Below, piece after piece: positions 1-45,168 of a DNA stretch of 64,000 nt. The stretch comes from a virus, in the IMG/VR virus record IMGVR_UViG_3300045988_067909; one strand, given 5' to 3'. The stretch's first letter is position 1. Every line of letters begins with the position of its first letter. The notes under the pieces were generated by a model, which made no database searches, had not been told where the DNA came from, and saw only the letters and a program-made list of their open reading frames with translations. The position numbers and the translations under genes are program-made.

Positions 1-367
1 GCATCAAAATATATGTCAACTAAATAGAGCTATTGCTGAAGTCGCAAGAGAGTTTATGGAAGACTGGAAATATAATACTTCTGGAATCTACAATAAGAAG
101 ATTAAAAAGAATATTGTAGAGTCTACTAGTATTATGAATAGTCTTTATAATAAGCTTAAAAGAACCTATACTATTACTGACGGAAATAGGCCAACCGTTA
201 AGTCTTTTATGACAGCATATGGTAGAGATTATATTTGTGAGCGCAAAGAGCCTCCTGAAAAGTTGAGAAAACTATATGAAAGATTTAGAATGATTCTCGG
301 AGGAAACAATGGAAAACTTTACAACAGTGTACAGCAAACCACAAGCTGTAACAATGCTACTGACTAA
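1..367 (+). CDS. hypothetical protein, 5'-truncated at window edge
   Basis: ORF 56..367 stays open in frame back to nt 2 (no stop), so the gene probably starts upstream of the window. Overlaps the next gene by 59 nt in another frame. No recognisable motif. Confidence 0.4.
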   Translation, partial: HQNICQLNRAIAEVAREFMEDWKYNTSGIYNKKIKKNIVESTSIMNSLYNKLKRTYTITDGNRPTVKSFMTAYGRDYICERKEPPEKLRKLYERFRMILGGNNGKLYNSVQQTTSCNNATD

Positions 368-1661
368 TGATTGTAACTTAGCATGTAGCTACTGCTTTGA
401 ATCTAATAAGGGTAAAGACTATATGCCAAAAGAAATGGCATTAGATATTCTTAAGGCTACATACAACCAAGTAGACCCAATGGCTGGTATATTCACTTTA
501 AACATGTTTGGTGGAGAACCATTAATGAATTGGGAGACTTTTAAAGCTGTATGTGATTATGTCTTAGAGAATAACCTTAAGATTCGTATTACTGCAACAA
601 CTAACCTGACTTTACTTACTGATGAAATGATTGATTATATCGATGAGCTATCTATTCCTGTATTAGTATCTGTAGATGGTATCAAAGAAGTTCATGATAA
701 GCATAGATGTAATAGTTTCGATAAAGTTATTGAGAATATGAAAAAGCTTATTGATAGAGACTTAGGATATCTTATTGAAGCACGTATGACAGTTGCTCCA
801 GATACAGCTAAATATATGTATGAATCAGTTAAGATGCTAGTTGACTTAGGTATTAATAATATTGCTAATGTACCAGCATCTGACTTAGAATGGGATGCTC
901 AATCTATTCAAGATTACAAAGATAATTACGAGAAGATTCTTGATATGTATATCGATATACTGAACGATGAATCTAATAAACGTAATATCTCTCTATATAA
1001 AGTAGACCAAGCATTAAATCTAGCATTAGAGCCTATTAAAGAAGATACTTCTATGTGTAATATTGGCAACCCTAGATGGGTTATTGTAGACTGGAAAGGT
1101 GATATTTGGCCTTGTCCTGATTATCCGACTACAGATAATGTAGATTTGATTGCTGGTAAGATTGGCAACTTCTATACTGGTGTAGATGAAACTAAAGTTG
1201 ACCCTAAGCCTATGGTTGCTACATATGAACTAGAACGTTGTAAGGGATGTGAAGCTATCTCTATTTGTAAGTCTGGTTGTCCTTATGAGAACTATACTAA
1301 GAATGGTAAGTTTAATGAACCAACCATTGGTTACTGCACTTTACAGAAAGCTTTTGTAGAAATCATTAAAGCTTATCAAGATAAGTTACTTGAAGCAACT
1401 AATATCCGTTCTAGACAGCTAAATGTCTTAATTGAAAATCTTAAAGTCAAGAAGTACTATGATGAGAAAGTTAAGACTATTAGTATTACTGATAGAGAAT
1501 TTGGCGTAAGATTAAATCATTTCGTTGAGAAGTATGAGAATCTAAATAATAAAGGTAATGTATTACCTAGTTTTGATACATATTTTAAACATGAGCTAAT
1601 GACTGTGAATGCTATTATTGCAGCATTGGTTGGTAAAAAAGTTGAGTTTGTGGAGGATTAA
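309..1661 (+). CDS. radical SAM enzyme with C-terminal SPASM domain (protein/peptide-modifying maturase family)
   Basis: RBS GGAGGAAACA before ATG 309. CxxxCxxC (CNLACSYC) at nt 372-395. Gly-rich 'MFGGEPL' SAM-binding motif. C-terminal 7-8 Cys including the canonical SPASM CxxCx5Cx3C (CKGCEAISICKSGC, nt 1239-1280). No N-terminal RRE-like extension. Confidence 0.85.
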   Translation: MENFTTVYSKPQAVTMLLTNDCNLACSYCFESNKGKDYMPKEMALDILKATYNQVDPMAGIFTLNMFGGEPLMNWETFKAVCDYVLENNLKIRITATTNLTLLTDEMIDYIDELSIPVLVSVDGIKEVHDKHRCNSFDKVIENMKKLIDRDLGYLIEARMTVAPDTAKYMYESVKMLVDLGINNIANVPASDLEWDAQSIQDYKDNYEKILDMYIDILNDESNKRNISLYKVDQALNLALEPIKEDTSMCNIGNPRWVIVDWKGDIWPCPDYPTTDNVDLIAGKIGNFYTGVDETKVDPKPMVATYELERCKGCEAISICKSGCPYENYTKNGKFNEPTIGYCTLQKAFVEIIKAYQDKLLEATNIRSRQLNVLIENLKVKKYYDEKVKTISITDREFGVRLNHFVEKYENLNNKGNVLPSFDTYFKHELMTVNAIIAALVGKKVEFVED

Positions 1662-1667
1662 TTTTAC

Positions 1668-3386
1668 ATGCCAACACAAGTAAAAAGAGGGAATACTGTT
1701 GAATACAGTATTCCCGATAAAATAGACAGAACCAAAGATAATATAGTAGCTAAAGCACCATTAGTTGCTATAGCTAGTGCAATAGCTGTCAATCTTAAAG
1801 AAGCTAAAGCATTAGAACGTGTACGATCTGGTTTTGGTTCTCCGGAGAATCGTATACGACGTGTAGTTGATGCTGGTGATGAAGTACAACGATTTAGTGA
1901 TAGTATCGTTATAGATGAATCACTTAAAGCATCTAGTATGAATATGCTATTAGGTATGGCATCTGAATTGATAAACAGTACAGTTGGTATTAGTGAATCA
2001 ATGGAGGGATATACTGTAGTTAAATATACCACACCTGGTAGATTTACTTGGAATGCTCCTAGGGGGACTAAGACAGTATTACTAGGTTTATGTGGTGGTG
2101 GTGGATCCATGGGTGCTAGTGGTGAATCTACGAGTTTCAATGAAGCCATTGTTAATGGTGGTAATAATATCTTTATTGATAACTTGCTAGCTGGTGTAAC
2201 TGGTTATCAAGTATCTTTATTTGAAAGCAGATTTGGTTACTATGGTAGACCAGAATCTTCTACTGATTGGTATACTAATCGTTCTGGTATGCACTGGGGT
2301 AGACAGAACTCGGGATTACCTGGTGATTTTATGACTACAGTTTTAAACGTTAAAAGTGGTTCTGCTCAATCTATTGTAGTCGGTGGTCCTGGTGCACCAA
2401 GATGGTATGGTGATGCTAATAGAAAATCTACTCAAGGGTTTGTATACTTAGCATATAAAACAGATGGTGATGATGAACCATATGGTTTAGATAAAGTATA
2501 TACTGTACCTGGCGACTATGAATATACAGTACCAGCAGGTGTACGTAAAATATCTGTAGTCTTAATTGGTGGTGGTGCATTTACTATTAGTGGTACTGTC
2601 GAAAATAAAGTTGAAATCTATGAATATATGGGTCGCTATATCAAACAAGGTGATTTTAGAAATTTCCCAGCTCAAAGCTATAAGCATCTAGATAGAGTTC
2701 TTGATGAATTAAACTATACTGGACCATTTACTAGATATGATAATCCACGTCAAGGTAGTTGGAAACAAACTAGATATAGGGCTCCACATAATTACCAAGT
2801 AGTAGGCTATATTCCATCACACTTACCTGGTGCTAATGGTGAACAATCTAAGTTTGGTGATATCGTAGCTAATGGTGGCGACCGAGATAATATCTCTTAC
2901 ACCACAGATACTGGTTGGAATCTTAATTTTGATGCACAAACAGGACCAACAGGGCGTGGTATGTTTAAAGATAGCATTAACCAAAAAGTTGGCGGTCCAG
3001 GTGAATATAAACGTGTAGTATTAGATGTATATCCTGGGCAAAAGTTTAATGTACATGTAGGACGTGGTGCAAAATACGAATCTGATGGTTCTTTTAAAGC
3101 TAGTGATGGTGCTGTTGGTATAATGAACGGTGATTATCGTGAAACGTCTAGTGGTTTATTTAGAGCTATGGCTCCGGGAGACTTGTATACTGGTGCGACA
3201 TTGAATCTTATGATTAGTAACTTACATGTTTTAAATAAAGCATTCAATGATTTAGAAAATAAGTATTGGGAAAATGACTTATGTAAGACATCTTGTCAAG
3301 TATCTTGCCAGGCTTCTTGTCAAATCGCATGTCAAAACTGTCAATATGATACTTGCCACAATCAAAATTGTGGGGGGTGGTCGTAA
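1668..3386 (+). CDS. 572-aa Gly-rich protein ending in a Cys-Gln ladder (CKTSCQVSCQASCQIACQNCQYDTCHNQNCGGWS); putative rSAM substrate
   Basis: ATG 1668 lies 7 nt after the rSAM stop. GGAGG RBS. Last 34 aa (nt 3282-3383) hold 8 Cys, 5 of them in a C-Q-x-x register. Internal GGGG/GGPGAP segments. Confidence 0.8.
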   Translation: MPTQVKRGNTVEYSIPDKIDRTKDNIVAKAPLVAIASAIAVNLKEAKALERVRSGFGSPENRIRRVVDAGDEVQRFSDSIVIDESLKASSMNMLLGMASELINSTVGISESMEGYTVVKYTTPGRFTWNAPRGTKTVLLGLCGGGGSMGASGESTSFNEAIVNGGNNIFIDNLLAGVTGYQVSLFESRFGYYGRPESSTDWYTNRSGMHWGRQNSGLPGDFMTTVLNVKSGSAQSIVVGGPGAPRWYGDANRKSTQGFVYLAYKTDGDDEPYGLDKVYTVPGDYEYTVPAGVRKISVVLIGGGAFTISGTVENKVEIYEYMGRYIKQGDFRNFPAQSYKHLDRVLDELNYTGPFTRYDNPRQGSWKQTRYRAPHNYQVVGYIPSHLPGANGEQSKFGDIVANGGDRDNISYTTDTGWNLNFDAQTGPTGRGMFKDSINQKVGGPGEYKRVVLDVYPGQKFNVHVGRGAKYESDGSFKASDGAVGIMNGDYRETSSGLFRAMAPGDLYTGATLNLMISNLHVLNKAFNDLENKYWENDLCKTSCQVSCQASCQIACQNCQYDTCHNQNCGGWS

Positions 3387-4561
3387 TGAAGATATTTATG
3401 ACAGATGAATTATATGACTATATTAAGACTCGACCAGATTTTAATGAATTCCAAACAGCTTATGATAAACTTACTTATGGTGAAACTATAAGAGAAGAGC
3501 TAGAAGCACAGTATAATTCTATGACTTCAGGAGAATTAGCTGAGTATCTTAATAAAGTCAAATCTGAAGTAGCAGATAGACCAGATTTAGTTAGATATAT
3601 AAACTATACATCTGATATATCAGTACAGACTCTAATGACTATAGTTAATGATACTAGTCTACCTAAAAAAGATAAGATGTATGCATTACTAAGATTATTC
3701 ACTTATAGTTATGCTGATGGTATCCATTTTGAATATGTAGTTGATTTTGTCACTATGTATAATGCTATGAGTGCTGAAGAGTTGGCTACATTACCTAGCT
3801 ATATTCATGTAAACTATATTGAATTGAATGGCTATTATTTGTATAAGACTATGCAAGATAACCATGAGACTTTCGATACAACTGCTTATGATAAACTAGT
3901 AGAGCATTATAAAACAGTCAAAGAGAAAGTTAAACCATATTATAGTGATGCTGATGTAATAGATAATATATGGCTTGAAGTCCAAGCTTACTTTATTAGA
4001 CTATTACATAATGACTTAACTAATACTGCTATAGATATCATCTTAGAACGTATTAATCTAGACCATGAAAAGCTAACCAATAAATACAAATATGTATCTT
4101 TAGGTGTCATGTGGCTATATGAAATGTATATGGAAACTAGTTTTAATGCTAGTAACTATCATGGGTTTATCTTATGGGCATTTAAACTATTTAGATATAT
4201 AGATAGTGCATTAGCTGATCATGATAACCTATTTGATGGTTTAAGATTCTATGATAAAGTTAATATTATAGCATTTGCTATTATAGTTAGACGTCTTCTT
4301 AATATTAAAGAAGTCTTCATTTCAATAGTTCAATTACGTTTATTTAACTTAGACTTTACTGATGAATTATTCTTAGCTGGTGAGGGTGTAACTAATGTAA
4401 ATCTTACATCTAAGCCATCTAGAGATGCTATGTTGTCTTTTAAGAATTACGTAGACGTATGGTTTAATAATAATAAGCCTAAGCTAATTCAGCTTAGAGA
4501 TGATTCGGCAACTATGGAAGACTTCCGTGCTATTATTCGTGATTACTTACATTCAGTCTAG
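3386..4561 (+). CDS. hypothetical protein (391 aa), partner gene inside the rSAM operon
   Basis: ATG at 3386 overlaps the upstream stop (TAATG). The track start 3353 is a TTG. No recognisable motif. Confidence 0.7.
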   Translation: MKIFMTDELYDYIKTRPDFNEFQTAYDKLTYGETIREELEAQYNSMTSGELAEYLNKVKSEVADRPDLVRYINYTSDISVQTLMTIVNDTSLPKKDKMYALLRLFTYSYADGIHFEYVVDFVTMYNAMSAEELATLPSYIHVNYIELNGYYLYKTMQDNHETFDTTAYDKLVEHYKTVKEKVKPYYSDADVIDNIWLEVQAYFIRLLHNDLTNTAIDIILERINLDHEKLTNKYKYVSLGVMWLYEMYMETSFNASNYHGFILWAFKLFRYIDSALADHDNLFDGLRFYDKVNIIAFAIIVRRLLNIKEVFISIVQLRLFNLDFTDELFLAGEGVTNVNLTSKPSRDAMLSFKNYVDVWFNNNKPKLIQLRDDSATMEDFRAIIRDYLHSV

Positions 4562-4577
4562 GAGGTGATAGTTAATT

Positions 4578-5780
4578 ATGGCAGATATAGAATTTAATAT
4601 GAATAACCGCTATAGATGGACTATCCCTGATATTCCATATGTAGTTAAGAAAGATAATAAAACAACAACTGAGATACCTAATAATGTAGATATAGCTTTT
4701 GATAGACACTTTGTGGATACTACAGTACGTGGATTAGTAGAATCCTATCAAACTTGTGTAGCTATATATGCTGAAATGAAACAGTTGTCATATAATCCAA
4801 CTGTAGATGCTAAGGGTAGAAACTATTGGGAATCTAGTACACCAAAGTATCAACAAAACCAAGAAGCTAATATAGATACAGATCACTCTAATAAGATGAA
4901 CTTTAACAATCCATCTTCTGGAGATCATTTACATCCATCTCGTATTGTAGATCTAAATCAACTATTATCTTCTAGTACACAGGTAGAGAGTAATACATTA
5001 GAGAATATATTAGACTTCTATGGTGTATATCATCCAAGTATTGGTGGTGGGTCTACTAATATAACTGAACGTATCGTTTTAAGTAATGATAATGCAGAGC
5101 CACCTAAGATGGAACTTGTAGATGCATTTAGAGATGCTAATGGTAATACTAAGTTCCCAGCTAGAACTGATGGTCAAAGTTATAATCAACCAATTAAACT
5201 AGAATGGTTTGCTAGACTTAGAGAGAATCTAATTAATACATCTAACTTCTTCATTAAGAATAATGGTAAGTTTTATGATGTAAATGGATATTGTGTTGTA
5301 GGATGTCAAGTAAACTGTCAGTCCACATGTCAATTGACTTGTCAACATAGACAATTGGGTGATGATTTCTTAAATAAAACATTCTTAGAGTGGAATGAAG
5401 ATCTACAAACTATATACAAACTAGGTTGGCAAACATATGACCACCCAGACCATGACCATAATGTATACATATTCTTCTATGACCCATGGGGTAGACGTTG
5501 GATGTATCGTAATACTAGATACTATGGAGATGGTTATTATCTATTACCAGATCAAAATGATATATACTCTATACGTCCTACACATCATGCGGATGATAAC
5601 ATGAATCTAGAGTGGTATCCTGGTGCGCCATATGATAACCCTAAACAATATCATTGGGAGATGGTACGTAATATACATACAGGTAAAAATGACTTGGTTA
5701 ATAAACTAGACCCACATTGGAATGATGCTGGTAATTACTATGTATCAGATGGTTATTGCCATAGCTGTGATAATAGATAG
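4578..5780 (+). CDS. 400-aa protein with internal Cys-Gln ladder CVVGCQVNCQSTCQLTCQ; putative rSAM substrate, paralog A
   Basis: Perfect RBS GGAGGTGATAGTTAATT-ATG. Ladder at nt 5292-5345. His/aromatic-rich C-terminal half (HPDHDHN, WYPGAP). Confidence 0.8.
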   Translation: MADIEFNMNNRYRWTIPDIPYVVKKDNKTTTEIPNNVDIAFDRHFVDTTVRGLVESYQTCVAIYAEMKQLSYNPTVDAKGRNYWESSTPKYQQNQEANIDTDHSNKMNFNNPSSGDHLHPSRIVDLNQLLSSSTQVESNTLENILDFYGVYHPSIGGGSTNITERIVLSNDNAEPPKMELVDAFRDANGNTKFPARTDGQSYNQPIKLEWFARLRENLINTSNFFIKNNGKFYDVNGYCVVGCQVNCQSTCQLTCQHRQLGDDFLNKTFLEWNEDLQTIYKLGWQTYDHPDHDHNVYIFFYDPWGRRWMYRNTRYYGDGYYLLPDQNDIYSIRPTHHADDNMNLEWYPGAPYDNPKQYHWEMVRNIHTGKNDLVNKLDPHWNDAGNYYVSDGYCHSCDNR

Positions 5781-5796
5781 GAGGTGATAGTTAATT

Positions 5797-6921
5797 ATGG
5801 CAGATATAGAATTTAATATGAACGATCGCTATAAATGGACTATCCCTGATATCCCATATATAGTGAAGAAAGATAACAAAATCACTACAGAAATCCCAGC
5901 TGATGTAGATATAGCTTTTGATAGACACTTTGTGGATACTACTGTACGTGGATTAGTAGAATCCTATCAAACTTGCGTAGCTATATATGCTGAGATGAGT
6001 CAGCTGGTATATAATCCACAAACCAACCGTCAAGGTAATAACTACTGGGATGGCAATAATAGATTTAGACAAAACCAAGAGAATAATGTAGACTTAGACC
6101 ATGCTAATAAGATGAACTTTACTAATCCACATAAAGAACCACATAGTTCAGGTACACGTATAGCAAATCTAAATTCTATACTCAATGATCCAGATGGTGT
6201 TAGAGAAGATAATCTAGAATCTATACTAGATTATTATAGAACCTATAATTCTGATACTAATGGTGGTATATCTGTAGACTTGTCTATGAATATATTAAAT
6301 AATGGATTAAAAGCAGAAGCACCAGCATATATACAAGTAGATGCATTTAGAGATGCTAATAGCAATACTAAATTCCCTGCTAGAACTGATGGTCAAAGCT
6401 ATAATCAACCTATAAAATTGGAATGGTTTGCTAGACTACGTGAGAATCTCATTAATACATCTAACTTCTTCATTAAGAATAATGGTAAGTTTTATGATAA
6501 TGGTGGTTTCTGTGTTATAGGTTGTCAGGTTAACTGTCAATCTACATGTCAATTGACCTGCCAGCATAGACAGCTAGGTGACGATTTCTTAAATTATACT
6601 AAGCTTGAACGTTATGAGCATGCTGAGATTATTAAGAAATTAGGTTGGCCAGACTTCCGTGGACGTAATGGTAATGAGTCATTAAACTATTATGACCCCT
6701 GGGGACGTATATGGCGTTGGTATGTATTTGCTAAACAAGGTTATGGTGCATACTATTTAGGTCATGAACCGCATGACAATTATTGGTATTTTGAAAATAA
6801 TATCGGTTGGTATCCTGGTGCTCCGTTTGATAGACCTGCTGGTGTAAACCCAGATGGTAGCATACCAACACCAAAACGTGATCCTGATTATGATCCTTGT
6901 GCTGGTTGTGAAAATAGATAG
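5797..6921 (+). CDS. 374-aa paralog B of the preceding gene, with Cys-Gln ladder CVIGCQVNCQSTCQLTCQ
   Basis: Identical RBS/leader sequence (ggaggtgatagttaattatggcagatatagaatttaatatgaa). N-terminal ~60 aa about 90% identical to paralog A. Ladder at nt 6511-6564. Divergent middle and C-terminal regions. Confidence 0.8.
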   Translation: MADIEFNMNDRYKWTIPDIPYIVKKDNKITTEIPADVDIAFDRHFVDTTVRGLVESYQTCVAIYAEMSQLVYNPQTNRQGNNYWDGNNRFRQNQENNVDLDHANKMNFTNPHKEPHSSGTRIANLNSILNDPDGVREDNLESILDYYRTYNSDTNGGISVDLSMNILNNGLKAEAPAYIQVDAFRDANSNTKFPARTDGQSYNQPIKLEWFARLRENLINTSNFFIKNNGKFYDNGGFCVIGCQVNCQSTCQLTCQHRQLGDDFLNYTKLERYEHAEIIKKLGWPDFRGRNGNESLNYYDPWGRIWRWYVFAKQGYGAYYLGHEPHDNYWYFENNIGWYPGAPFDRPAGVNPDGSIPTPKRDPDYDPCAGCENR

Positions 6922-6926
6922 AATAT

Positions 6927-7967
6927 ATGAATAACGATTATAAAGAAATATACCTAATGCTTACTGAGGCTTGCCCTAATAGATGTGAGTATTGTTATAT
7001 TAAGGGTAGAGATAACCCTAAGAGTATGACATTTGAACAGATTGAAGAAATAATACGTGTAGAAAAACCTACACGTATTATATTCTTTGGTGGTGAACCA
7101 TTGCTCAAGATAGATCTAATAGAGCAAGTATTAGAGAAGTATTATGGTAAGATTAAATTCCAAGTAGTCACATCTACTGTAGTTAATTTTAAAGAGTTTA
7201 TTGAATTAGATAAGAAGTATCCATTTAGTGAGATACAGTTATCATGGGATGGTTTCTCAGATAAGAACCGTGTTGATACTTGTGGTAATTCTATATCTAA
7301 GACAGTATATGACAATATCCAATATGCTATATCTCAAGGAACTAAGTTTGATGTAAAGTGTGTTATTGGTAATGAGAATATACAAATCTTTGATGAGATA
7401 CATGAGACTTTCGTAGAATGGAAGAAGAAGTATAATGTCAATGGTGAGTTTGTATTAGCACATAGACCATACTATGCACCAGAATATTTAGAGTTATTCC
7501 GTGAGAAGTATAAGAAGACATTCACTCTAGAGAGAATGTATATGGAACATATGAATCGTATTATAGCTATCTTACAAGATGATGATAACTTTGGTTCATG
7601 TGATGTCGGTAAGTATAAGGTTATTACACCATATGGTGAAGAATCTTACTGTACAGCATTATCTCAAGAAGAGACTGAGTTTGATAAGGATATCTTACAA
7701 GCACCATGTACATCTCCAGATTGTAAGATATGTAAATACAAATGTATTTGTGATGGTGGGTGTAGATATGAACGCTATGCTCAGTTTGGTGATAAGTGGA
7801 GAGAAAACCACTTAGATGCTACATGTCAAATGTCTGAAATCATATATACTACTATTAGAGAATGGATAGACTCTTTAGATGATGATGACTATGAAAAACT
7901 ATTAGCTTACGTTAGAAGCTATAAAGATCATTTAGAACGATACCATCAGGAGGTTACTCACGAATGA
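6927..7967 (+). CDS. radical SAM/SPASM enzyme 2
   Basis: CxxxCxxC (CPNRCEYC) at nt 6972-6995. 'FFGGEPL' motif. C-terminal CKICKYKCICDGGC fits the SPASM CxxCx5Cx3C. Confidence 0.8.
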   Translation: MNNDYKEIYLMLTEACPNRCEYCYIKGRDNPKSMTFEQIEEIIRVEKPTRIIFFGGEPLLKIDLIEQVLEKYYGKIKFQVVTSTVVNFKEFIELDKKYPFSEIQLSWDGFSDKNRVDTCGNSISKTVYDNIQYAISQGTKFDVKCVIGNENIQIFDEIHETFVEWKKKYNVNGEFVLAHRPYYAPEYLELFREKYKKTFTLERMYMEHMNRIIAILQDDDNFGSCDVGKYKVITPYGEESYCTALSQEETEFDKDILQAPCTSPDCKICKYKCICDGGCRYERYAQFGDKWRENHLDATCQMSEIIYTTIREWIDSLDDDDYEKLLAYVRSYKDHLERYHQEVTHE

Positions 7968-9214
7968 TTGACTTTTTACCTGAGCGTATATATAACGCTA
8001 TTAAAGAAGACCAAGAATATGAAAATATCTTAATGTATAGAGAGAATGAATTCCGTAAGCTAATTACGTTCAAAGAATTCTGTCTATATGATAACGTCTT
8101 CATTAAGAATAAAACAAAATGGGAATACTTTACTGGGACTTTACAGAGCCTGGTTAAAAAGTATTGTCCAGAATATATGACTGAACTAGATATTGCTATC
8201 TCTCCTAGGAAAACTAGAGCAGATTATCTCAATATCTACTACAATGATACTAAGATTGACTTTGAAACTAAGCTATTCGTATTATCTAAAATAGCTGATA
8301 TGTCTAAGTATAAAGATGATTACTTTAACTATCTTGGTATGTATTGTAACTTATATGAAAATATTGCTAAGTCTGATGCAGAGAAATACTCTGCTATCAT
8401 TCATTATACATATATACAATATGCTACATTAGCATATGCTAAGACATTGCCTAAAGATTCACAATGTATCTTTAAGATTAAGAAATATCTAGATACATTA
8501 CGTTTTGGATATGGTAATTTATCTGCTGATGCTTTAAACGTTATCTATATCAATACTTTTGTACAATGTATCACATTAGTTCTAGAAGAACTTGAGAATG
8601 ATATGTTAGTTAAAGAGATGCTAGATGATGTACAGTTACCAGAATCACTATTTGAAGTCCAATATGGTAACTATGGTATTACTAGATTAGCATTATGGTA
8701 TAAACTATTTGAGATTAATTTCTCAGTACGAGACTTTGCTAAATGTAAAGAGCTATTCAATAAGATGGTAGATTTAATTGATGGTAATCTTAAAGAACCA
8801 CAATTACTATTCCGTGGTTTATACGTATATAACCAAAATAATATTCCATATTTTTATGGGATATTAAGATTCGTATGTCGAATGCTCGGTGCATATGACC
8901 CAACTCTTACATTATCTAATCTCTCCGAAGAAGATAAACAATTTATCTCCATATATGATTGGGATTCTAGTGACCTATTGATTTCTGATAGACTTACTTC
9001 GGAGATATTCTATAACTATGCTCTTAGAACTAACTTATGGTTCTATAATTCTGCTGAAGCACTTAAAGCATATAAATATTTCGTTTATGAACAAGCTGGA
9101 TTAGAATTACCATCCGAAGATAGAATTCTTAAACCATTAGATGATTTCTTAAGTTCTTTCTTAGATGATGAACCAGCTGAAGAAGTTGTACCAAACCCTA
9201 AGGGTGATAAGTAA
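7964..9214 (+). CDS. hypothetical protein (416 aa), second partner gene in the rSAM operon
   Basis: ATG 7964 overlaps the upstream stop. RBS CAGGAGGT. No motif recognised. Confidence 0.7.
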   Translation: MIDFLPERIYNAIKEDQEYENILMYRENEFRKLITFKEFCLYDNVFIKNKTKWEYFTGTLQSLVKKYCPEYMTELDIAISPRKTRADYLNIYYNDTKIDFETKLFVLSKIADMSKYKDDYFNYLGMYCNLYENIAKSDAEKYSAIIHYTYIQYATLAYAKTLPKDSQCIFKIKKYLDTLRFGYGNLSADALNVIYINTFVQCITLVLEELENDMLVKEMLDDVQLPESLFEVQYGNYGITRLALWYKLFEINFSVRDFAKCKELFNKMVDLIDGNLKEPQLLFRGLYVYNQNNIPYFYGILRFVCRMLGAYDPTLTLSNLSEEDKQFISIYDWDSSDLLISDRLTSEIFYNYALRTNLWFYNSAEALKAYKYFVYEQAGLELPSEDRILKPLDDFLSSFLDDEPAEEVVPNPKGDK

Positions 9215-10392
9215 TGTATGATCGTATAGATGCGGTTACATTTAAGATATCTGAATATTGTAATCTAGACTGTGTATACTGTTTTCAAAAATATGATACT
9301 AAGACTAGATATGATGGGTTTACTGATTTTGATCAGCTAGTTAAGTTCTTAAGAAAGATGCCATTAGGGGATACTTTAGAATTCAAAGTTACTGGTGGAG
9401 AATCTAGTCTTCATTGTGATAAGATTAGAAGTGCTTATAGAAAGCTTAAGAAACTAGAGCGTTATAAGAACGTAAACATAGAGTTTACGACCATTTCTAA
9501 TGGCACCAATATAGATGGGTTGACAGAACTCTGGAATGATGGTATACTAAATCCATGGGGATGTAAGATATCCTGGGATGGGGTTTATAGTGCATCTAAA
9601 TCACGTAAAGTAAAAAATAATTCTTATGATGATGAGTATTTTAAAGATATCATTCGTAAGCTAGGTAAGTCTGACTATAGAGATAAAGTCTTAGTTAGAA
9701 CTGCTTTAACACCAGATACTGTAGACGAACTATATCAAGCATATAGATTTGCTATAGATAATGGCTGTACTAAATGGGAATATTATTTACTTAGTGATTG
9801 TGATGAATACAAAGATCCAAAGTTCATAGAGAGACTAAGACCACAACTATATCATATATACAATGATAGTAAAGACTTTCCTGAATCTATTGTAGCTAAT
9901 CTAGATTCTATGGCTTATGTACATACAGACTTATCTGATGCTACAAAGTTAAGATGTATTAGCTGTAGACATCTTGGTCATTTCTTGCATATAGATATAC
10001 ATGGTAATATATACCCTTGTGGATACTTCTCTGATGATTCCTATTATGATGACCAAACATTATCTATAGGGGACATTTACTCGGGTTTAGATAAATATAA
10101 ATTAGAGAAGTTTTGTGATGAGTATAATAATCTTCCCATGTGTAGCATACAAGATGGGTGTGAATGTTTACATTGTTTTGAATGTCCTGCTATTAGTCAC
10201 CTATACTACAACAATATGCAGTATAAGCTAGGACAACAATGTAAGATTAGACACTTAGAACTAGACTTGTATAGAGAGATATTCTCAGACTACACATTCG
10301 ATATGTCTCGTATACAAAGAAACTTTAATGTGTATAATGAACTTGAGTACCACAAGTGTGGATTATGTGAATCCCTTCCATTCAAAGAATAG
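9214..10392 (+). CDS. radical SAM enzyme 3 with a Cys-rich twitch/SPASM-like C-terminus
   Basis: TAATG overlap start. CxxxCxxC (CNLDCVYC) at nt 9259-9282. 'VTGGESS' motif. C-terminal CISCRH...PCGY...CSIQDGCECLHCFECP cysteine cluster. Confidence 0.8.
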   Translation: MYDRIDAVTFKISEYCNLDCVYCFQKYDTKTRYDGFTDFDQLVKFLRKMPLGDTLEFKVTGGESSLHCDKIRSAYRKLKKLERYKNVNIEFTTISNGTNIDGLTELWNDGILNPWGCKISWDGVYSASKSRKVKNNSYDDEYFKDIIRKLGKSDYRDKVLVRTALTPDTVDELYQAYRFAIDNGCTKWEYYLLSDCDEYKDPKFIERLRPQLYHIYNDSKDFPESIVANLDSMAYVHTDLSDATKLRCISCRHLGHFLHIDIHGNIYPCGYFSDDSYYDDQTLSIGDIYSGLDKYKLEKFCDEYNNLPMCSIQDGCECLHCFECPAISHLYYNNMQYKLGQQCKIRHLELDLYREIFSDYTFDMSRIQRNFNVYNELEYHKCGLCESLPFKE

Positions 10393-10418
10393 TATATTTT
10401 TATTTCGGAGGGACTTAT

Positions 10419-10571
10419 ATGACCAAATTAGATAGAGAGCTCAGACGTGCAGTAATTAAAGGTAAGATCCTTAGTACGGCTAAAACTATCATTGTAAATC
10501 CTAAGTTTTTAAGAATAGTTCCTAAAATAATTTCTGTTATCTTTAGACTACTTAAGAAAAGATTTTTGTAA
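10419..10571 (+). CDS. small basic protein (50 aa, MTKLDRELRRAVIKGK...IISVIFRLLKKRFL), not in the ORF track
   Basis: GGAGGG RBS 7 nt upstream of the ATG. Followed directly by a hairpin terminator. No Cys, so it is not a precursor peptide. Confidence 0.35.
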   Translation: MTKLDRELRRAVIKGKILSTAKTIIVNPKFLRIVPKIISVIFRLLKKRFL

Positions 10572-10587
10572 TAAAGAGACGTTATAA

Positions 10588-10615
10588 TCCATGGGTGACC
10601 AACCCATGGATTTTT
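10588..10615 (+). terminator. intrinsic terminator ending the rSAM operon
   Basis: tccatgggtgaccaacccatgga hairpin followed by TTTTT. Confidence 0.7.
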
Positions 10616-10660
10616 AACACTCTTATAATTTGAACAAATTCTTTCATTGGAGGTAATATA

Positions 10661-12121
10661 ATGGCAAAACTACATGATACCAGTGTAACTGGTAATATTA
10701 ATGCCTCGGGTACTATATATGCTAATGGTAAGGCAGTTGCACCATTAGATCATACTCATTCAGTACAAGCTATAACTGGTTTAGACAAATCAGTAAAAGA
10801 TATAGTAAACGCTACACCTGTAGCTAATGCAACAAATGCAACACAATTAGCAGGTAAGACAGCAGACCAATATGCACTAAAGAGTGATTTAACTGCTTTA
10901 GGTGAACGCTTAAATCAAATTCAGTATTCTATAACTAAAGCATTTAAGTGTCCTAACTACGTATCTTTTAGTTACGATAATAACTTTGTTAAAATTACAT
11001 TGAGTGATAGAATGGCTAATATCACAAATAAAGCAATTATTGTCGAAGATGATACTATGAAGTTTGTAATCAATTTATTTAGTCAATCCAATTTTAGTCT
11101 CTATAATAAGATAATTATTAAAGATAAGGTTGATGTTGATAAATACTACGACTACAGTGTTACTATGCCTACCATATACAGAGTTTCTGATACTACTTTT
11201 ATTGTGGGTGGTATTTGTACAACTAACGGTAATTTATTAGCATCCATCACTCTACAAAGTAATGAACCAATCACTGCTGATGATTTTACTATTAGTGCTA
11301 GAGATCAAGCATATAATCTAAATAATGCAAGTGCCAAAAAGGTTGTATCTAGTAGAGATCTTATTCCTCACTTTGCCGAAAAGTATATAGATACACAAAA
11401 ATTTGGTTATCTATATACTATTAAAAAACCAGGTACTTATGATAGACGTTTAGATCTTCATTTAGACTCTACAACTTCTACTGTATATATTTATACTTTA
11501 AATCCTATGAGTAATATGGCTTTAGGGGTTAATGGTAATGGTATAGTTTCATATAATGCTGCAAATGTTAGAAATGAACCTAGCGTTGCAATTAGCGGAC
11601 TAACTGTATATATTGACTTATCCACAATATCAGATGATTTTGTTATTTTGGGTGATTGTACTGCTACTTATAGCACAACAGGTTTGCTCAGCTCTACTCC
11701 ACCAAAAGATCTACCACAATCTATGGGTAGTAGTATTGATGAAAACCGTGCGTTATCTTTCAATAAAGTCTTAGATTTATTGGGTCGTAGTGTAACCATT
11801 AATGGTGCGATTTACGATACTAAATATGATATAAATATAAACAGATTATTGACATTTCCTGCAACGTATATTAATGACCAATCAGTCACTATAGGCAGCA
11901 TGTATAATACTATTACAGCTAGAGCTAATGGTGGTAACGCTGATACAGTTGGTGGATTATCACCTAACTCGTTTATCACTACTGATAATTTAGCACGTAA
12001 ATACTACTCTAAAGTTGCAGTATACGACAATGATAATCATCTTATTCATCCAGATGGTACTGAAGAATGGATCGAATATCAAAGACCACAAGCGTCTGAA
12101 GATAATATGGATCACTTATAA
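10661..12121 (+). CDS. tail-fibre-like / receptor-binding-like structural protein (486 aa)
   Basis: Strong RBS GGAGGTAATATA. The N-terminus (MAKLHDTSVTGNINASGTIYANGKAVAPLDHTHS...LAGKTADQYALKSDLTAL) resembles phage fibre N-terminal/coiled-coil anchoring domains. Sits directly upstream of a giant structural gene. Confidence 0.6.
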   Translation: MAKLHDTSVTGNINASGTIYANGKAVAPLDHTHSVQAITGLDKSVKDIVNATPVANATNATQLAGKTADQYALKSDLTALGERLNQIQYSITKAFKCPNYVSFSYDNNFVKITLSDRMANITNKAIIVEDDTMKFVINLFSQSNFSLYNKIIIKDKVDVDKYYDYSVTMPTIYRVSDTTFIVGGICTTNGNLLASITLQSNEPITADDFTISARDQAYNLNNASAKKVVSSRDLIPHFAEKYIDTQKFGYLYTIKKPGTYDRRLDLHLDSTTSTVYIYTLNPMSNMALGVNGNGIVSYNAANVRNEPSVAISGLTVYIDLSTISDDFVILGDCTATYSTTGLLSSTPPKDLPQSMGSSIDENRALSFNKVLDLLGRSVTINGAIYDTKYDININRLLTFPATYINDQSVTIGSMYNTITARANGGNADTVGGLSPNSFITTDNLARKYYSKVAVYDNDNHLIHPDGTEEWIEYQRPQASEDNMDHL

Positions 12122-12133
12122 TAGGAGACTATT

Positions 12134-15100
12134 ATGGCTAAATTAACTGATATAAAATATGTAATAAGTGCTAGTGGTAGAAGAGAAGAGATTTCTCTAT
12201 ATACCACAAAAGAAGAAGCTGGAGATATATGTAAAGGGTTTAAGTTACCAGATGGTACTAAAGCGTATGCTGCTATTGGTGATACTAAATCTAGACTAGC
12301 CACAATGAAGAGATTTAAAATCCAAGGTAAAGTATATGCTGCTTTAACTGAAGCTGAAAAGAAGAAAACTAAAGTTAAGAAAGTATATATCTTTAAAGCT
12401 GGTAGCCATAGATTTAAAGTACCATTCTGGGCTAAGAAAGTACACTATACACTTTGTGGTGGTGGTAATGGTATCATATCAACCAATGCTCCTATATTAG
12501 ATACTATAGAGAAAGATGGTATTACTGATAATAAAAGCATTATGATGGCTCGTAAGGTTAATGATGTTATGTATGCTACAATACCTTATATGGGTAGAAG
12601 TATAATGGGTACACCATCATCTATGTATGTAGAGAAGGAGTTCGAAGGTGATCCTGATTCTGGTTATGAAACATACACTGGTACGGATGAGACAAGAAGC
12701 ATAAATACTGCAAGTAGAGTGTATAATAATTGGCGTGGCGATGAAAGTAGCTGGATTATGCAGACAACTGATAATAAATCTAAAGGATTTTCTGTATATC
12801 AAGCTGATGCATCTGTCTATAATAATATGGGACAACATATTGAGACTACACCAGTTGTAACTAGAAAGAAAGTTGTTATAGCTCCGACTATGATAAATCC
12901 TGATATTGTAGATGATACCAATTATGATAACTTAGTTGACAGTATACTTGTAGGATTACCTTTGCCACCACCAATGGGCCCAGTGGAAAACGAAGGTGAA
13001 TATGTAAGACTAACAGCTATAAAAGATGATGCATCGTTTACTGTATACAATAAAGGGTTTAAAGCACTATATAATGTATACCCTAAGTCTGATATGGTAA
13101 AGATTACCGATATATCAAAGTTTATCAATGATACAATGGCTAAATATAAAGTCAATCTTGTTGATAAAGATATATATCACGATGAAGATAACTCTCTTAT
13201 GGTAAATTCATTCATCAACCAAGCATATATCTATAATACATATACACCATTTGATAAATTGTATTCTGCTGGTATAGCTATGTATAATGATGGGTCTACC
13301 CCACCATCTAGAACTGATTCTTTGATACAGTCTACATACGATACAGCATTCAATCAATTTAAAGCTAAGTCTACAGAATATAAGCAAAGATATGATAATG
13401 TAACTTACTATATGCGTAAACAGTTCTTAAATGGGACTATGTTTGATTATGATTATATGATGCAGCTTAAAGAAGCTGGTACATTAGATAATATGATCAA
13501 TTCTTCTATGCTATCTAATATGGATTTAGTTGATGGTGCATATGATTTTGCTACAGGGCATCATACATCCCCTAAATTGTCAGAAACACGTTTAGGTGCT
13601 AAGGAAGTTATATTTGATATCCAATGTTTAGATGGTGTAGTTAGACCGCTATCGATTAAGTATGGTGGCTCTCTTGTATTAGGATGGGATAAATACTTTG
13701 ATGATGCATATTGCTATGATATCGAAGATATAGACATCTACAGAGCAGAAGAGTTTACTAAACTATTTAACCCATTAAGTGGCAATATAGTTCCAAACCC
13801 ACTAGAGGGACAAGAAATAACTGGTACATGGGATGTATCTCCTGATGAGGATATAGTTATTGAAGTCGGTACTCATGGTAAGTTATATACTGAAGATATG
13901 GGATTTAAACTAAATAAGTATTTCCATGATCGTGATGCTGATGGTATTTGTATCTTAGAAGTCGAAGGAGATTTCGAAGATATAGATGATATTGATAATT
14001 ATATTAATGATAATATAAGATCTTTAACACCAGATCATTATAACCAAATGGTTATGCTAGACCCTATTAGTCGTGATATGTATCAAAGATATCTCAAATA
14101 TATCAATAACTACTCTGGTGATATAGATTTGTCTGCACAAGACACATTCACAGTTAAGAGATCTGCAGCCAGCCCAGCTTTTGTTAGTAATCTTAAATTA
14201 GTTGATGGTATGGCCACTGATAAAAATATAAATTTATATTATTCTAGTAGAACGCAAAAAGTGGAAAGCTTACCGAAAAGCAGTGATTATACTATTAAAG
14301 TATTTGGCTATGATATTGGTAAGACTACTGATTTATCTTTATTCCATAATTATATTGGTGCTTATGATGGCGTTAAAATGGATATAGCTGAAGATCTAAT
14401 ATCCAATCTATCCGAATATGTAAATTATAGTGGTAATGTATACCAAAGTGTAATACCTGTTAGAAACTACTATGCAGATAAAGAGCATACATTTATATTT
14501 AAAAATGCCAATACAATAAGCTATGCATTTATGCTTGGTGTCATAGACAGTGGGCATACGCCTAAGGTTAAACTAAACTATAATAAGGCTTTAGATGTGA
14601 CTGGTGCTTTAATCTTTACAAACACACAAGAGCTAGATTATAGATGGTATGTGTCATTAGGTTTATATATAAACCCATCTACCGCTAAGAATATTAATGT
14701 TAATGAACGAATGACTATATCATTCCCTAATGAAAATGCTATAAAGAATAAAAAAGTTAAGATATTTAAACCATGGGCTACATACGATCAATCTAAAGCG
14801 TATGTAAAATATATAGTTCCTAAAGATTATACAGCCAAATCTATCATAGGTATCGTACCATTGTTGGATAAGTCTATAGATAATGTATATATTGATATAA
14901 CTAATCTTAAAGACGAACCATATACTATATCTCCTATAGTGTCTAGTACACTCAATAAATTACCAAATGTGCATATTATAGACAATTCTGGTATAGCCGA
15001 GCGCAAATTTAATGGTTTATTTGGTTATGCTAAGAAAAACTATTTAGGGGCTGTTACATTAGCACCAACGGTTATGGATAATTTTGCCAGAAGTTCATCT

Positions 15101-15934
15101 GCAGACTTGAGTGATGTTATATTAAAGACATCTACAATTAAAAGCTTTGCTCATGCATTTAATGAGTTTAGTGGTAAATTTCCAAAGAATATAGATTTAA
15201 CCAGCGGTTCTAATTTTGAATCGTTATTCTATAATACTAATTTGGATAATATAACTATGGATAGCTTTGTAGATAGTACATATGTAGCCACAACTAGAGA
15301 AAGTGATAGATTGACAATGTCTTCGATGTTTACTACATTTACAGGACGTGATATATCATTCGATGTATGGGGCTTTCTAGTTAAAAAAGTAAAACTATTA
15401 GAGAAGCTCAAATCCTATGCATATGTAAATTTATATAGTATGCTAACTTATGTTCGAAGTATACCATTCTTTAGTTTTTATGAAATATATATGGCAGTTG
15501 CTGATGAAAAGTTCTATAACTTATCAGCTCGTGGAAATTTAGGTATTAATGGTATTGCAAATACTGCTACGTTTAAAGAACTAGAAATGCCTATACTTAC
15601 TGACAGTAACGGTCAGCTTAATAGAAAATTTTCATTGGATGCTTGTAATACAAACGGTATCGGTAAATTAGTATTTAGACAACCACCAAATCAAAATATA
15701 GCATCTATAGATTCGCTCAAGGTATCTATAACCGATATTAGATATTGTGGTGATTTTATTACTAAAAATAAACCAGAGTCAAATACTTATAAACTACCAA
15801 CTACTATTGTAGTTAGACTTCTTAGAGACAAAACTTCAATACCAGAAACAACTGAATCTATTGAAGCTATTAAGACTTTCTTAAACGCTACATACGCTAC
15901 ACCAAAAGAAAATATCTCTGTTATTTTTGAATAA
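12134..15934 (+). CDS. large virion structural protein (1266 aa), probably a tail/fibre component
   Basis: RBS TAGGAGACT. Begins MAKLTD like the preceding gene. Contains an 'LCGGGNG' segment similar to the 572-aa Cys-Gln protein. No enzymatic motif. Confidence 0.7.
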   Translation: MAKLTDIKYVISASGRREEISLYTTKEEAGDICKGFKLPDGTKAYAAIGDTKSRLATMKRFKIQGKVYAALTEAEKKKTKVKKVYIFKAGSHRFKVPFWAKKVHYTLCGGGNGIISTNAPILDTIEKDGITDNKSIMMARKVNDVMYATIPYMGRSIMGTPSSMYVEKEFEGDPDSGYETYTGTDETRSINTASRVYNNWRGDESSWIMQTTDNKSKGFSVYQADASVYNNMGQHIETTPVVTRKKVVIAPTMINPDIVDDTNYDNLVDSILVGLPLPPPMGPVENEGEYVRLTAIKDDASFTVYNKGFKALYNVYPKSDMVKITDISKFINDTMAKYKVNLVDKDIYHDEDNSLMVNSFINQAYIYNTYTPFDKLYSAGIAMYNDGSTPPSRTDSLIQSTYDTAFNQFKAKSTEYKQRYDNVTYYMRKQFLNGTMFDYDYMMQLKEAGTLDNMINSSMLSNMDLVDGAYDFATGHHTSPKLSETRLGAKEVIFDIQCLDGVVRPLSIKYGGSLVLGWDKYFDDAYCYDIEDIDIYRAEEFTKLFNPLSGNIVPNPLEGQEITGTWDVSPDEDIVIEVGTHGKLYTEDMGFKLNKYFHDRDADGICILEVEGDFEDIDDIDNYINDNIRSLTPDHYNQMVMLDPISRDMYQRYLKYINNYSGDIDLSAQDTFTVKRSAASPAFVSNLKLVDGMATDKNINLYYSSRTQKVESLPKSSDYTIKVFGYDIGKTTDLSLFHNYIGAYDGVKMDIAEDLISNLSEYVNYSGNVYQSVIPVRNYYADKEHTFIFKNANTISYAFMLGVIDSGHTPKVKLNYNKALDVTGALIFTNTQELDYRWYVSLGLYINPSTAKNINVNERMTISFPNENAIKNKKVKIFKPWATYDQSKAYVKYIVPKDYTAKSIIGIVPLLDKSIDNVYIDITNLKDEPYTISPIVSSTLNKLPNVHIIDNSGIAERKFNGLFGYAKKNYLGAVTLAPTVMDNFARSSSADLSDVILKTSTIKSFAHAFNEFSGKFPKNIDLTSGSNFESLFYNTNLDNITMDSFVDSTYVATTRESDRLTMSSMFTTFTGRDISFDVWGFLVKKVKLLEKLKSYAYVNLYSMLTYVRSIPFFSFYEIYMAVADEKFYNLSARGNLGINGIANTATFKELEMPILTDSNGQLNRKFSLDACNTNGIGKLVFRQPPNQNIASIDSLKVSITDIRYCGDFITKNKPESNTYKLPTTIVVRLLRDKTSIPETTESIEAIKTFLNATYATPKENISVIFE

Positions 15935-32030: not shown

Positions 32031-32090
32031 TACGGTGGTGTAGGTGTATGCCACCGTATTACTCCATTGTTATACCTGTTTTATTTTTTA
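32031..32090. terminator. probable bidirectional terminator between convergent genes (atacggtggtgtaggtgtatgccaccgtat hairpin, T-rich flanks)
   Basis: 9-bp stem. Sits between convergent 3' ends. Confidence 0.4.
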
Positions 32091-45125: not shown

Positions 45126-45168
45126 AAAAATTGAGGTAGGAGCTTAAAGGCCCCTACCTCGGTATTTT
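45126..45168 (-). terminator. terminator after the 1766-aa gene (gaggtaggagcttaaaggcccctacctc hairpin; U-run on the minus strand, and also T-rich on the plus strand)
   Basis: 9 of 10 bp stem. A/T runs on both flanks. Confidence 0.5.

Follow-up and report, generated by a model that had tools for sequence, protein, structure and literature searches.

Why does a large phage protein end in a short, regular run of cysteines and glutamines, and why does its gene directly follow one for a radical S-adenosylmethionine (rSAM) enzyme? The question is raised by IMG/VR virus record IMGVR_UViG_3300045988_067909, of which a stretch of 64,000 nt (hereafter the window) was analyzed. Within it, a 572-aa protein carries a 34-residue Cys-Gln ladder at its extreme C-terminus, and the gene immediately upstream encodes an rSAM enzyme, termed rSAM-A here. 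Our analysis indicates that the ladder is probably a core of the SCIFF type built into large phage proteins and crosslinked by an rSAM enzyme through Cys-Gln thioethers. We regard rSAM-dependent thioether stapling of the ladder as the likelier account of this locus, with moderate confidence, and hold the exact chemistry and the role in the virion with less. The modification itself, the identity of the Cys-Gln thioethers, the ring register and the virion role are what we infer from the combined observations.

The final 34 residues, CKTSCQVSCQASCQIACQNCQYDTCHNQNCGGWS, are laid out as C-x3-CQxx-CQxx-CQxx-CQ-x-CQ-x3-CHNQNC-GGWS. Translation confirmed the pattern that had first drawn attention to the gene: eight cysteines at tail positions 1, 5, 9, 13, 17, 20, 25 and 30, the first five with a period of four, and Gln directly after five of the eight. 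The other 538 residues of the protein contain a single Cys. Across the long open reading frames (ORFs) of the window, Cys has a frequency of 1.0%, and the probability of at least eight Cys in 34 residues is 1.6e-9 per position, or about 3e-5 over the window proteome. A DNA pattern encoding CQxxCQxxCQ matched six times in the window, within three genes, and not once in 100 shuffles. The tail is not unique in the window, as two further proteins carry an internal copy of it and several rSAM genes are present.

The protein is also Gly-rich, as originally described (12.1% Gly). Its N-terminal region is the family-wide MPTQVKRGNTVEYSIPD...; two Gly-rich segments occupy approximately residues 113-165 and 272-304, and a helix then leads into the ladder at the C-terminus. 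The description of the upstream part as a leader of more than 500 residues had to be given up: these 538 residues constitute a modular protein made of the N-terminal region, the Gly-rich inserts and the pre-ladder helix. In the ladder family the core is conserved and the rest is variable, which is the opposite of typical ribosomally synthesized peptides with post-translational modifications (RiPPs).

To recover the family, the last 64 residues were searched with phmmer against 1.84 billion representative proteins, yielding 85 clusters (50% identity) at E <= 1e-3. About 80 of these are genuine, and in them the module match ends within a few residues of the C-terminus. Members range from 71 to 627 aa, mostly 170-215, and share the consensus helix-(W/F)(W/F)D-x2-G-x-C-x3-CQxx-CQxx-CQxx-CQ-x-C-x4-CH(N/D)Q(N/K)CG. 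The pre-ladder segment, which was part of the query, aligns family-wide as L..I...L......(W/F)(W/F)D..G.C and forms a helix in the AlphaFold2 model of a 199-aa relative. Conservation was assessed in an alignment of 41 short members, where mean column identity is 25% and the tail is the only strongly conserved part. Eight residues are invariant there, namely the first five cysteines (C1 to C5), the Gln after C2, the His and C8; at least 90% conserved are the Gln after C3, C4 and C5, together with C6, C7 and the final Gln and Gly. A homologue with 41% identity retains the tail nearly unchanged, minus the last two Cys. Losses elsewhere fall at the same end of the module: C7 and C8 are absent in P0020/P0021, C7 in P0051/P0053, and C6 in P0082/P0097.

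Within a rung, position 2 is Gln in about 90% of cases and otherwise Glu, Met or, rarely, Leu, in a set of which part was selected on Q/E/M. Position 3 is V/L/T/I, position 4 is S/A/T/G, and the residue after C1 is unconstrained. The residues that replace Gln after C2-C5 (Glu, Met and Leu) all retain a gamma-methylene. The ladder usually consists of four CXXX units, and some proteins have 8, 13, 14, 21, 27 or 36. Such an invariant Cys/Gln pattern in otherwise divergent proteins suggests the conservation expected of a substrate, and we read the module as a portable domain that phage proteins of various kinds carry at the C-terminus or, sometimes, internally. Among the expanded ladders, P0040 (323 aa), P0027, P0057, L086 (655-1872) and L125 contain 13-36 consecutive C(Q/E/M)xx units, with up to approximately 145 residues of pure repeat leading into the same CH(N/D)QxCG end.

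A strict DNA pattern encoding CQxxCQxxCQxxCQxCxxxxCH, in which the CxxxxCH end was added to drop simple-repeat matches, was present in 96 IMG/VR viral contigs. Among 185,579 species-representative bacterial and archaeal genomes it was found in three, all of them contigs of metagenome-assembled genomes (MAGs), and one of these (L126) is a 283.5-kb contig of an 'uncultured bacterium' bin that is probably a jumbo phage. The ladder module is essentially phage-restricted. Another of the MAG matches, a 5-kb contig from a Solobacterium sp. MAG (L124; CALISH010000122.1), encodes a ladder module one residue off that of the window over the compared stretch; it may be a binning artefact or a hint at the host (oral Erysipelotrichia).

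The second line of evidence is genomic linkage. A hidden Markov model (HMM) was built from five rSAM-like proteins of the cassette and run on all retrieved loci, which comprised 100 module-bearing proteins in 98 loci. An rSAM homologue lies directly upstream on the same strand in 77 of the 100, and elsewhere in the locus in a further 19, mostly because the ladder gene sits at the edge of the available DNA. In the remaining four, less than 1.3 kb of upstream sequence is available; none with room for an rSAM gene lacks one. As a control, approximately 85 loci were retrieved with a looser DNA pattern (CQxx x4), whose matches are mostly simple-sequence repeats in wrong frames, and these simple-repeat loci gave zero rSAM matches. 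Even the divergent members P0096, P0100 and P0062 each have a Radical_SAM gene of 444-453 aa abutting upstream, and two of the three have two further rSAM genes directly downstream. The minimal conserved unit consists of rSAM-A followed by the ladder gene, and the ladder module is near-obligately linked to an rSAM gene. The original prediction had seen in the tail a RiPP-core-like segment and the likeliest substrate of the neighboring enzyme; conservation, co-occurrence with rSAM in 96 of 100 cases, and the kinship of the enzyme all speak for it.

That kinship was traced through profile and structure searches. The upstream gene had been recognized as rSAM from sequence inspection, and the Pfam Radical_SAM match bears this out; it ends 6 nt before the ladder gene. 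At residue 22 the enzyme has the motif CNLACSYC (CX3CX2C), and its SPASM motif, CKGCEAISICKSGC, follows the canonical pattern CX2CX5CX3C. Among NCBIfam models, the best is the PapB ranthipeptide maturase NF047865 (199.2 bits vs a cut-off of 340), followed by a ScfB-related orphan maturase (138 vs 855), the SCIFF maturase TIGR03974 (129.6 vs 425), QhpD (126.6 vs 453) and the CXXX-repeat maturase TIGR04115 (113 vs 350). Lower-ranked matches include many peptide maturases, sactipeptide and cyclophane enzymes among them, as well as anSME at 86 bits. The closest PDB entry is CteB (5WGG, E 3e-24), with residues 12-352 aligned to CteB 97-444; anSME (4K36) matches at E 8e-12. The first ~96 residues of CteB, which we take to be its RiPP recognition element (RRE), have no counterpart in rSAM-A, and by this comparison rSAM-A is an enzyme without an N-terminal RRE. 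It has approximately 100 extra residues after the SPASM domain. On these profile matches, we place rSAM-A as a SPASM peptide or protein maturase near the thioether formers and outside every curated family.

The tail and its enzyme can be compared with several known systems. SCIFFs (six Cys in forty-five residues) are ranthipeptides of ~45 aa, widespread in Clostridia and linked to quorum sensing (PMC8326336). The phage ladder resembles them in its Cys-rich C-terminal core, its period-4 C(Q)xx rungs and an adjoining rSAM/SPASM maturase. However, a SCIFF precursor such as CteA/Tte1186a has approximately 45 residues, with six Cys in its C-terminal half, whereas phage cores sit in proteins of 170-630 aa, have eight Cys, close with CH(N/D)Q(N/K)CG and can extend their ladders to 36 units; likewise, rSAM-A differs from the SCIFF maturase ScfB/CteB in falling far under its cut-off and in lacking a counterpart of the CteB N-terminus. 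The tail of relative P0033 reaches 19.9 bits (E 5e-4) with the SCIFF model TIGR03973, whose cut-off is 50, and 14.3 bits with PF13165, whose cut-off is 27. The top BFVD match of the P0033 model, A0A8S5UTL8/DAF97805.1 (200 aa, 'Myoviridae sp. ctYA416'), is itself a ladder-family member and has been auto-named 'Six-cysteine peptide SCIFF' in GenBank/UniProt. Full-text literature searches, subscription-only papers aside, found no paper on a phage rSAM-ladder system.

The closest precedent for a ladder of rings is PapA/PapB (freyrasin), with its tandem thioethers in repeats. In tandem CX3D motifs, PapB joins Cys to the beta-carbon of Asp, six thioethers in all, and it also takes Glu, which is linked through the gamma-carbon (PMC9413430). 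The phage system would differ in using a Gln amide as acceptor instead of a carboxylate, in having CQxx instead of CxxxD, and in acting on a large protein with no leader/RRE pair. For an amide acceptor, NxxcB joins Cys23 to Asn20, three residues upstream (PMC8326336). The phage rung Q-x-x-C is the Gln analogue of this arrangement, repeated head to tail, although NxxcA, compared here by description only, is a short streptococcal peptide with a single crosslink. The substrate in which QhpD installs Cys-Asp/Glu thioethers is a protein subunit and not a RiPP (PMC8326336). As would be the case for the phage ladder, these thioethers stay in a functional protein subunit and no peptide is released; QhpC, the gamma subunit of quinohemoprotein amine dehydrogenase, is nevertheless small, carries a quinone cofactor besides its three crosslinks, and shares neither sequence nor context with the phage proteins. 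The CXXX-repeat systems (TIGR04114-TIGR04118, TIGR04115) also place tandem Cys-Xaa-Xaa-Xaa units beside an rSAM maturase. An internal ladder of the window scores 16.7 bits against TIGR04114, the CXXX-repeat rSAM target (cut-off 20), and matches TIGR04118 and TIGR04117 below threshold. These systems concern bacterial peptides or proteins, and the phage scores are all below cut-off, with the CXXX periodicity present. Their chemistry is, to our knowledge, uncharacterized, and full-text search found no papers on CXXX-repeat rSAM systems.

Given these comparisons, we propose the following mechanism. The module would consist of a recognition helix and the Cys-Gln ladder and would serve as an rSAM target within a large phage protein. 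rSAM-A would bind it post-translationally; as the enzyme has no RRE, binding may rely on its own C-terminal extension or on the cassette proteins X1 and X2. A side-chain hydrogen would then be abstracted from the residue that follows each Cys, which is Gln or at times Glu, Met or Leu, and that carbon would be joined to the sulfur of a neighboring Cys, giving a run of small thioether rings of the ranthionine type. Seen from each conserved ladder Gln, the next Cys is three residues on (Q-x-x-C) and the previous one five residues back (C-x4-Q), which leaves two candidate ring registers. The first would follow the N-x-x-C ranthipeptide and be compatible with the helix predicted by AlphaFold2. The second would have the donor upstream, as in PapA and SCIFF, and would account for an invariant C1 followed by an unconstrained residue. 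Modification would yield a covalently stapled rod that withstands proteases and reduction, at the end of a probable virion fibre or adhesin component. Other rSAM enzymes of the operon may act on the internal-ladder paralogues or add crosslinks, and the CX2C-X4-C-H-x-Q-x-C end could additionally bind metal.

Several points weigh against this proposal. The phage is uncultured, and the system is known here from sequence alone. All assignments of rSAM-A and of the ladder family fall under curated cut-offs, and the SCIFF models gave no match to the tail of the window protein itself at E <= 10. PapB has been described as carboxylate-binding (PMC9413430), and no report of Gln as a ranthionine acceptor was found in the ranthipeptide literature searched. 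Since rSAM-A lacks the RRE of its characterized relatives, substrate recognition is unexplained. The prediction of a helix for the unmodified ladder of a relative means that a folded form stabilized by metal or disulfides is possible. The virion role is suggested by weak annotations of neighboring genes, and no structural-protein family exceeded its threshold on the ladder protein in Pfam, PHROG or fold searches.

The structural evidence behind these points is as follows. On the ladder protein, Gly_rich_2 (PF21722), a glycine-rich domain known from phage tail proteins, is a weak match (18.4 bits vs a gathering cut-off of 24.3), and PHROG tail families also match weakly. Relative P0050 exceeds the Gly_rich_2 cut-off at 38.8 bits, several relatives have Gly_rich_2 inserts, and one family member has a weak F5/8-type-C match. 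A PDB sequence search with the tail gave no match at E <= 10. Modeling of the 572-aa protein with AlphaFold2 from a shallow homologue alignment gave a mean pLDDT of 33, and the model was discarded. The 199-aa relative was modeled as a confident antiparallel helical bundle (mean pLDDT 81.9) in which the ladder is the last helix, at a moderate pLDDT of 56-75. Fold searches with this model returned generic bundles and no structural-protein family. In BFVD, the P0033 model also matched archaeal rod-shaped-virus proteins (probability 0.94-1.0, E 0.03-0.12, TM about 0.4); these are uncharacterized proteins of 320-533 aa (SIRV1, SRV, ARV3), and the similarity may be that of helical bundles in general.

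If the ladder were modified and then released, the protein would come closer to a conventional RiPP: its N-terminal part would act as carrier or leader, and the crosslinked ladder would be cleaved off as a SCIFF-like signal or toxin aiding the phage. The resemblance to SCIFF cores fits such a role, as does the tie of SCIFFs to quorum sensing (PMC8326336). The core is the conserved part, the host is probably of the Firmicute type, and many members are small (170-215 aa). However, no peptidase or transporter was matched by Pfam, PHROG or NCBIfam among the cassette proteins scanned, no conserved cleavage motif precedes C1, and the pre-ladder helix is packed in the predicted bundle. Carriers reach 627 aa with adhesin-type inserts, two paralogues hold the ladder internally with approximately 140 conserved residues after it, ladders expand to 36 units, and the cassette lies among fibre-like genes. 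We consider release unlikely. The fibre-like context, the adhesin inserts, the repeat-like ladder length and the missing peptidase and transporter matches are our reasons for favoring a stapled rod that remains attached to its protein; a peptide set free from it is the less favored reading.

A tail of 34 residues with eight Cys and a His would also suit a Cys knot, in which Zn, Fe, an Fe-S cluster or post-lysis disulfides clamp an oligomeric fibre and the rSAM enzyme acts elsewhere. Metal sites are known in phage fibres, with Fe in T4 gp37 and Zn in gp12, and AlphaFold2 predicts the ladder as a regular helix. The metallothionein-like alternative, which had been raised together with the RiPP reading, survives in part: the high Cys density and the CX2C-X4-CX4C end with its invariant His do resemble a zinc knuckle, but the invariant Gln and the near-obligate neighbor of the peptide-maturase type are left unexplained. 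Gln is as conserved as Cys and is replaced by Glu, Met or Leu only, although metal binding does not need it. Among the cysteines, C6-C8, which would have to be the zinc ligands, show the lowest conservation, and no metallothionein or zinc-finger family of Pfam or NCBIfam matched the tail at E <= 10. Metallothioneins also differ from the phage ladder in its strict period of four and its variable length, and period-4 ladders of up to 36 units misfit discrete metal sites. A metal or disulfide knot on a ladder that is no rSAM substrate appears improbable.

A comparably low probability attaches to rSAM chemistry of another kind on the ladder, such as alpha-carbon sactionines, formylglycine formation (anSME-like), epimerization, C-C crosslinks or intermolecular thioethers. 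This has some appeal, as rSAM-A lies under every characterized-family cut-off and also matches anSME, sactipeptide and cyclophane maturases, and the several diverged rSAM paralogues in the operon suggest more than one reaction. Nevertheless, each of the five best-matching families, like the closest structure, forms non-alpha thioethers, the ladder has neither the CxPxR sulfatase motif nor the aromatics that cyclophane formers need, and the strict pairing of Cys with Q/E/M fits a donor-acceptor thioether. Cys-Gln thioesters, which are known from complement C3 and the thioester domains (TED) of Gram-positive adhesins, were set aside because Met and Leu replace Gln and the partner is a radical enzyme, and an iron-sulfur 'wire' or coiled-coil metal stack was set aside because the period of four is strict and some members have lost C6-C8.

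Between 309 and 10392 the genes make up a single operon with gaps of at most 16 nt or overlaps (Table 1). In the window it includes rSAM-A, rSAM-B and rSAM-C in full, the 3' end of a fourth, degenerate rSAM gene, three ladder proteins and two putative helper proteins. The PapB model tops the NCBIfam list for all three complete rSAM enzymes, each below the cut-off of 340. rSAM-B has the motif CPNRCEYC and the SPASM motif CKICKYKCICDGGC. rSAM-C contains 19 Cys, with CX3CX2C as its only standard motif and a non-canonical C-terminal Cys cluster; orthologues of both enzymes occur in other cassettes. The gene truncated at the start of the window is full-length (440 aa) in a relative, the 269.6-kb ENA scaffold L001, where it lacks CX3CX2C; its product is possibly a pseudo-enzyme, such as a partner that binds the substrate. 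L001 encodes a ladder protein that is 98% identical and has two more rSAM-like genes on the upstream side: the degenerate one and, farther up and outside the window, an intact one (406 aa, CNLSCRYC), both within L001 6123-8697.

Table 1. Positions of the features discussed
Feature	Coordinates	Strand	Basis or remarks
Ladder protein, 572 aa	1668..3386	+	ORF and translation; stop TAA at 3384-3386
34-aa Cys-Gln ladder	3282..3383	+	Last residues of the 572-aa protein, TGT...TCG
Pre-ladder half of the conserved module, GATLNLMISNLHVLNKAFNDLENKYWENDL	3192..3281	+	Helix, then aromatic/acidic turn
rSAM-A, 450-aa radical SAM/SPASM enzyme, predicted ladder maturase	309..1661	+	Pfam Radical_SAM (66.7 bits), NCBIfam, motifs
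rSAM-B, 346-aa radical SAM/SPASM enzyme	6927..7967	+	Pfam above cut-off; PapB best, 58.6 bits
rSAM-C, 392-aa radical SAM enzyme, CNLDCVYC	9214..10392	+	Pfam above cut-off; PapB best, 88.0 bits
Degenerate rSAM-like gene, 3' end	1..367	+	73 bits to the cassette rSAM HMM
X1, 391 aa, no Cys	3386..4561	+	Orthologues 3' of the ladder gene in many loci
X2, 416 aa, conserved cassette protein, X1 paralogue	7964..9214	+	Sequence similarity to X1
Internal-ladder paralogue 1, 400 aa	4578..5780	+	Ladder at residues 239-259, nt 5292-5354
Internal-ladder paralogue 2, 374 aa	5797..6921	+	Ladder at residues 239-259, nt 6511-6573
Tail-fibre-like neighbor, 486 aa	10661..12121	+	Orthologues downstream of the cassette in L006, L021 and L077
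RNA-polymerase beta' fragment, split multisubunit	26741-28285	+	phrog_2987, 216 bits

The two internal-ladder paralogues are 61% identical. In paralogue 1 the ladder reads CVVGCQVNCQSTCQLTCQHRQ, and the protein is similar to the C-terminal-ladder proteins at an E-value of about 1e-12; the internal ladder C-x3-CQVNCQSTCQLTCQHRQ is invariant across eight aligned homologues. Paralogue 1 ends in ...CHSCDNR and paralogue 2 in ...CAGCENR. A second Cys motif, C-x-N-R followed after 10-30 residues by C-(S/T/N)-N-x-x-R, was observed in 13 of 80 ladder-family proteins (P0027, P0038, P0039, P0043, P0046, P0054, P0069-71, P0077, P0088, P0098 and P0104), and both internal-ladder proteins of the window end in ...C-x-x-C-(D/E)-N-R. 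This second motif could be the target of another rSAM enzyme.

Neither of the putative helpers X1 and X2 matched a Pfam, PHROG or NCBIfam family. For X1, a TTG start at 3353 is probably wrong, as the ATG at 3386 agrees with the gene call in L001. The stop codon of the ladder gene and the start codon of X1 overlap as TAATG (3384-3388), rSAM-B and X2 overlap by 4 nt (7964-7967), and X2 and rSAM-C by 1 nt (9214). These overlaps suggest translational coupling.

A fuller cassette recurs on contigs of 33 kb to 287 kb. It begins with a 205/211-aa protein, rSAM-A, the ladder protein, X1, rSAM-B and X2, and continues with rSAM-D, rSAM-C, sometimes rSAM-E, an internal-ladder protein and a tail-fibre-like protein. 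The conserved proteins upstream (205/211 aa) and downstream (475/486 aa) have weak PHROG tail or tail-fibre matches, the L021 orthologue of the 486-aa neighbor matches PHROG tail-fibre families, and the upstream neighbor in L205 is a 1936-aa Big_2/phage-fibre-repeat protein. Judged by these matches, the 486-aa neighbor probably places the cassette within a fibre/adhesin module. It is a more tentative proposal, and one that we consider rather doubtful as a whole, that a group of phages, jumbo phages among them, possesses a dedicated multi-enzyme 'protein-stapling' operon that turns terminal Cys-Gln repeats of 4-36 rungs into poly-thioether rods on fibre or adhesin proteins.

So far, rSAM thioether crosslinking has concerned short bacterial sacti- and ranthipeptides and one enzyme subunit, QhpC. 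If our proposal is correct, phages apply this chemistry to large, probably structural proteins with a tunable repeat length, and with up to five rSAM paralogues per operon. Should the more tentative proposal hold as well, this would represent the first rSAM-dependent covalent maturation of a virion protein and the first ranthionine-type link to glutamine, in a RiPP-like core that is never released. For rSAM enzymology, the system would provide maturases independent of a leader and RRE, Gln as a possible new acceptor and a poly-stapled scaffold of natural origin. In phage biology, it would amount to a new means of hardening particles or adhesins in the protease-rich anaerobic mouth or gut, in the spirit of the HK97 chain-mail. 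A practical outcome is an annotation rule, CxxxCQxxCQxxCQxxCQxCxxxxCH together with an adjoining rSAM gene, which applies to approximately 100 viral contigs and approximately 80 clusters of 'hypothetical' proteins. The system is phage-specific, multi-enzyme and fairly widespread, and an automated SCIFF label already exists for one member.

The source of the window is an uncultured jumbo phage. The window has 33% GC, and its RNA-polymerase beta' fragment shares 29% identity with the counterparts in Yersinia phage phiR1-37 and in AR9-like jumbo phages of Bacillus. An identity of only 29% places the phage on a deep, uncultured branch of RNA-polymerase-encoding jumbo phages. Homologues of the 572-aa protein were found only on metagenomic contigs of up to ~270 kb, many of ~255-262 kb. 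The group of phages with the operon comes mostly from samples associated with humans or other animals and includes jumbo phages of ~205-290 kb. In INPHARED, neither megablast of 1-12200 nor tblastn of the 572-aa protein or its relative P0036 gave a match; the sole matches to rSAM-A by tblastn, at 22-29% identity, were in phAss-1, Ralstonia RP12/RP31 and faecal phage contigs lacking annotation, and neither the phAss-1 locus nor the paper on that phage contributed anything about rSAM.

Other parts of the window hold further large genes. Five very large ORFs of 905-1944 aa, at 32088-37922, 37935-40652, 40664-43444 and 45168-50468 (-) and at 12134-15934 (+), gave no PHROG or Pfam match among those scanned, each with one or both libraries. 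Two proteins of 593 and 905 aa, encoded at 18501-20282 and 20360-23077 (+), have a trimeric-autotransporter-adhesin architecture above Pfam cut-offs, with YadA head repeats, a stalk and a membrane anchor, and the 905-aa protein also has an S-layer-homology (SLH) domain. An outer-membrane anchor combined with SLH is typical of adhesins of Negativicutes (Veillonella-type). Such a combination is odd in a phage genome and may indicate the host or be a host-derived surface moron.

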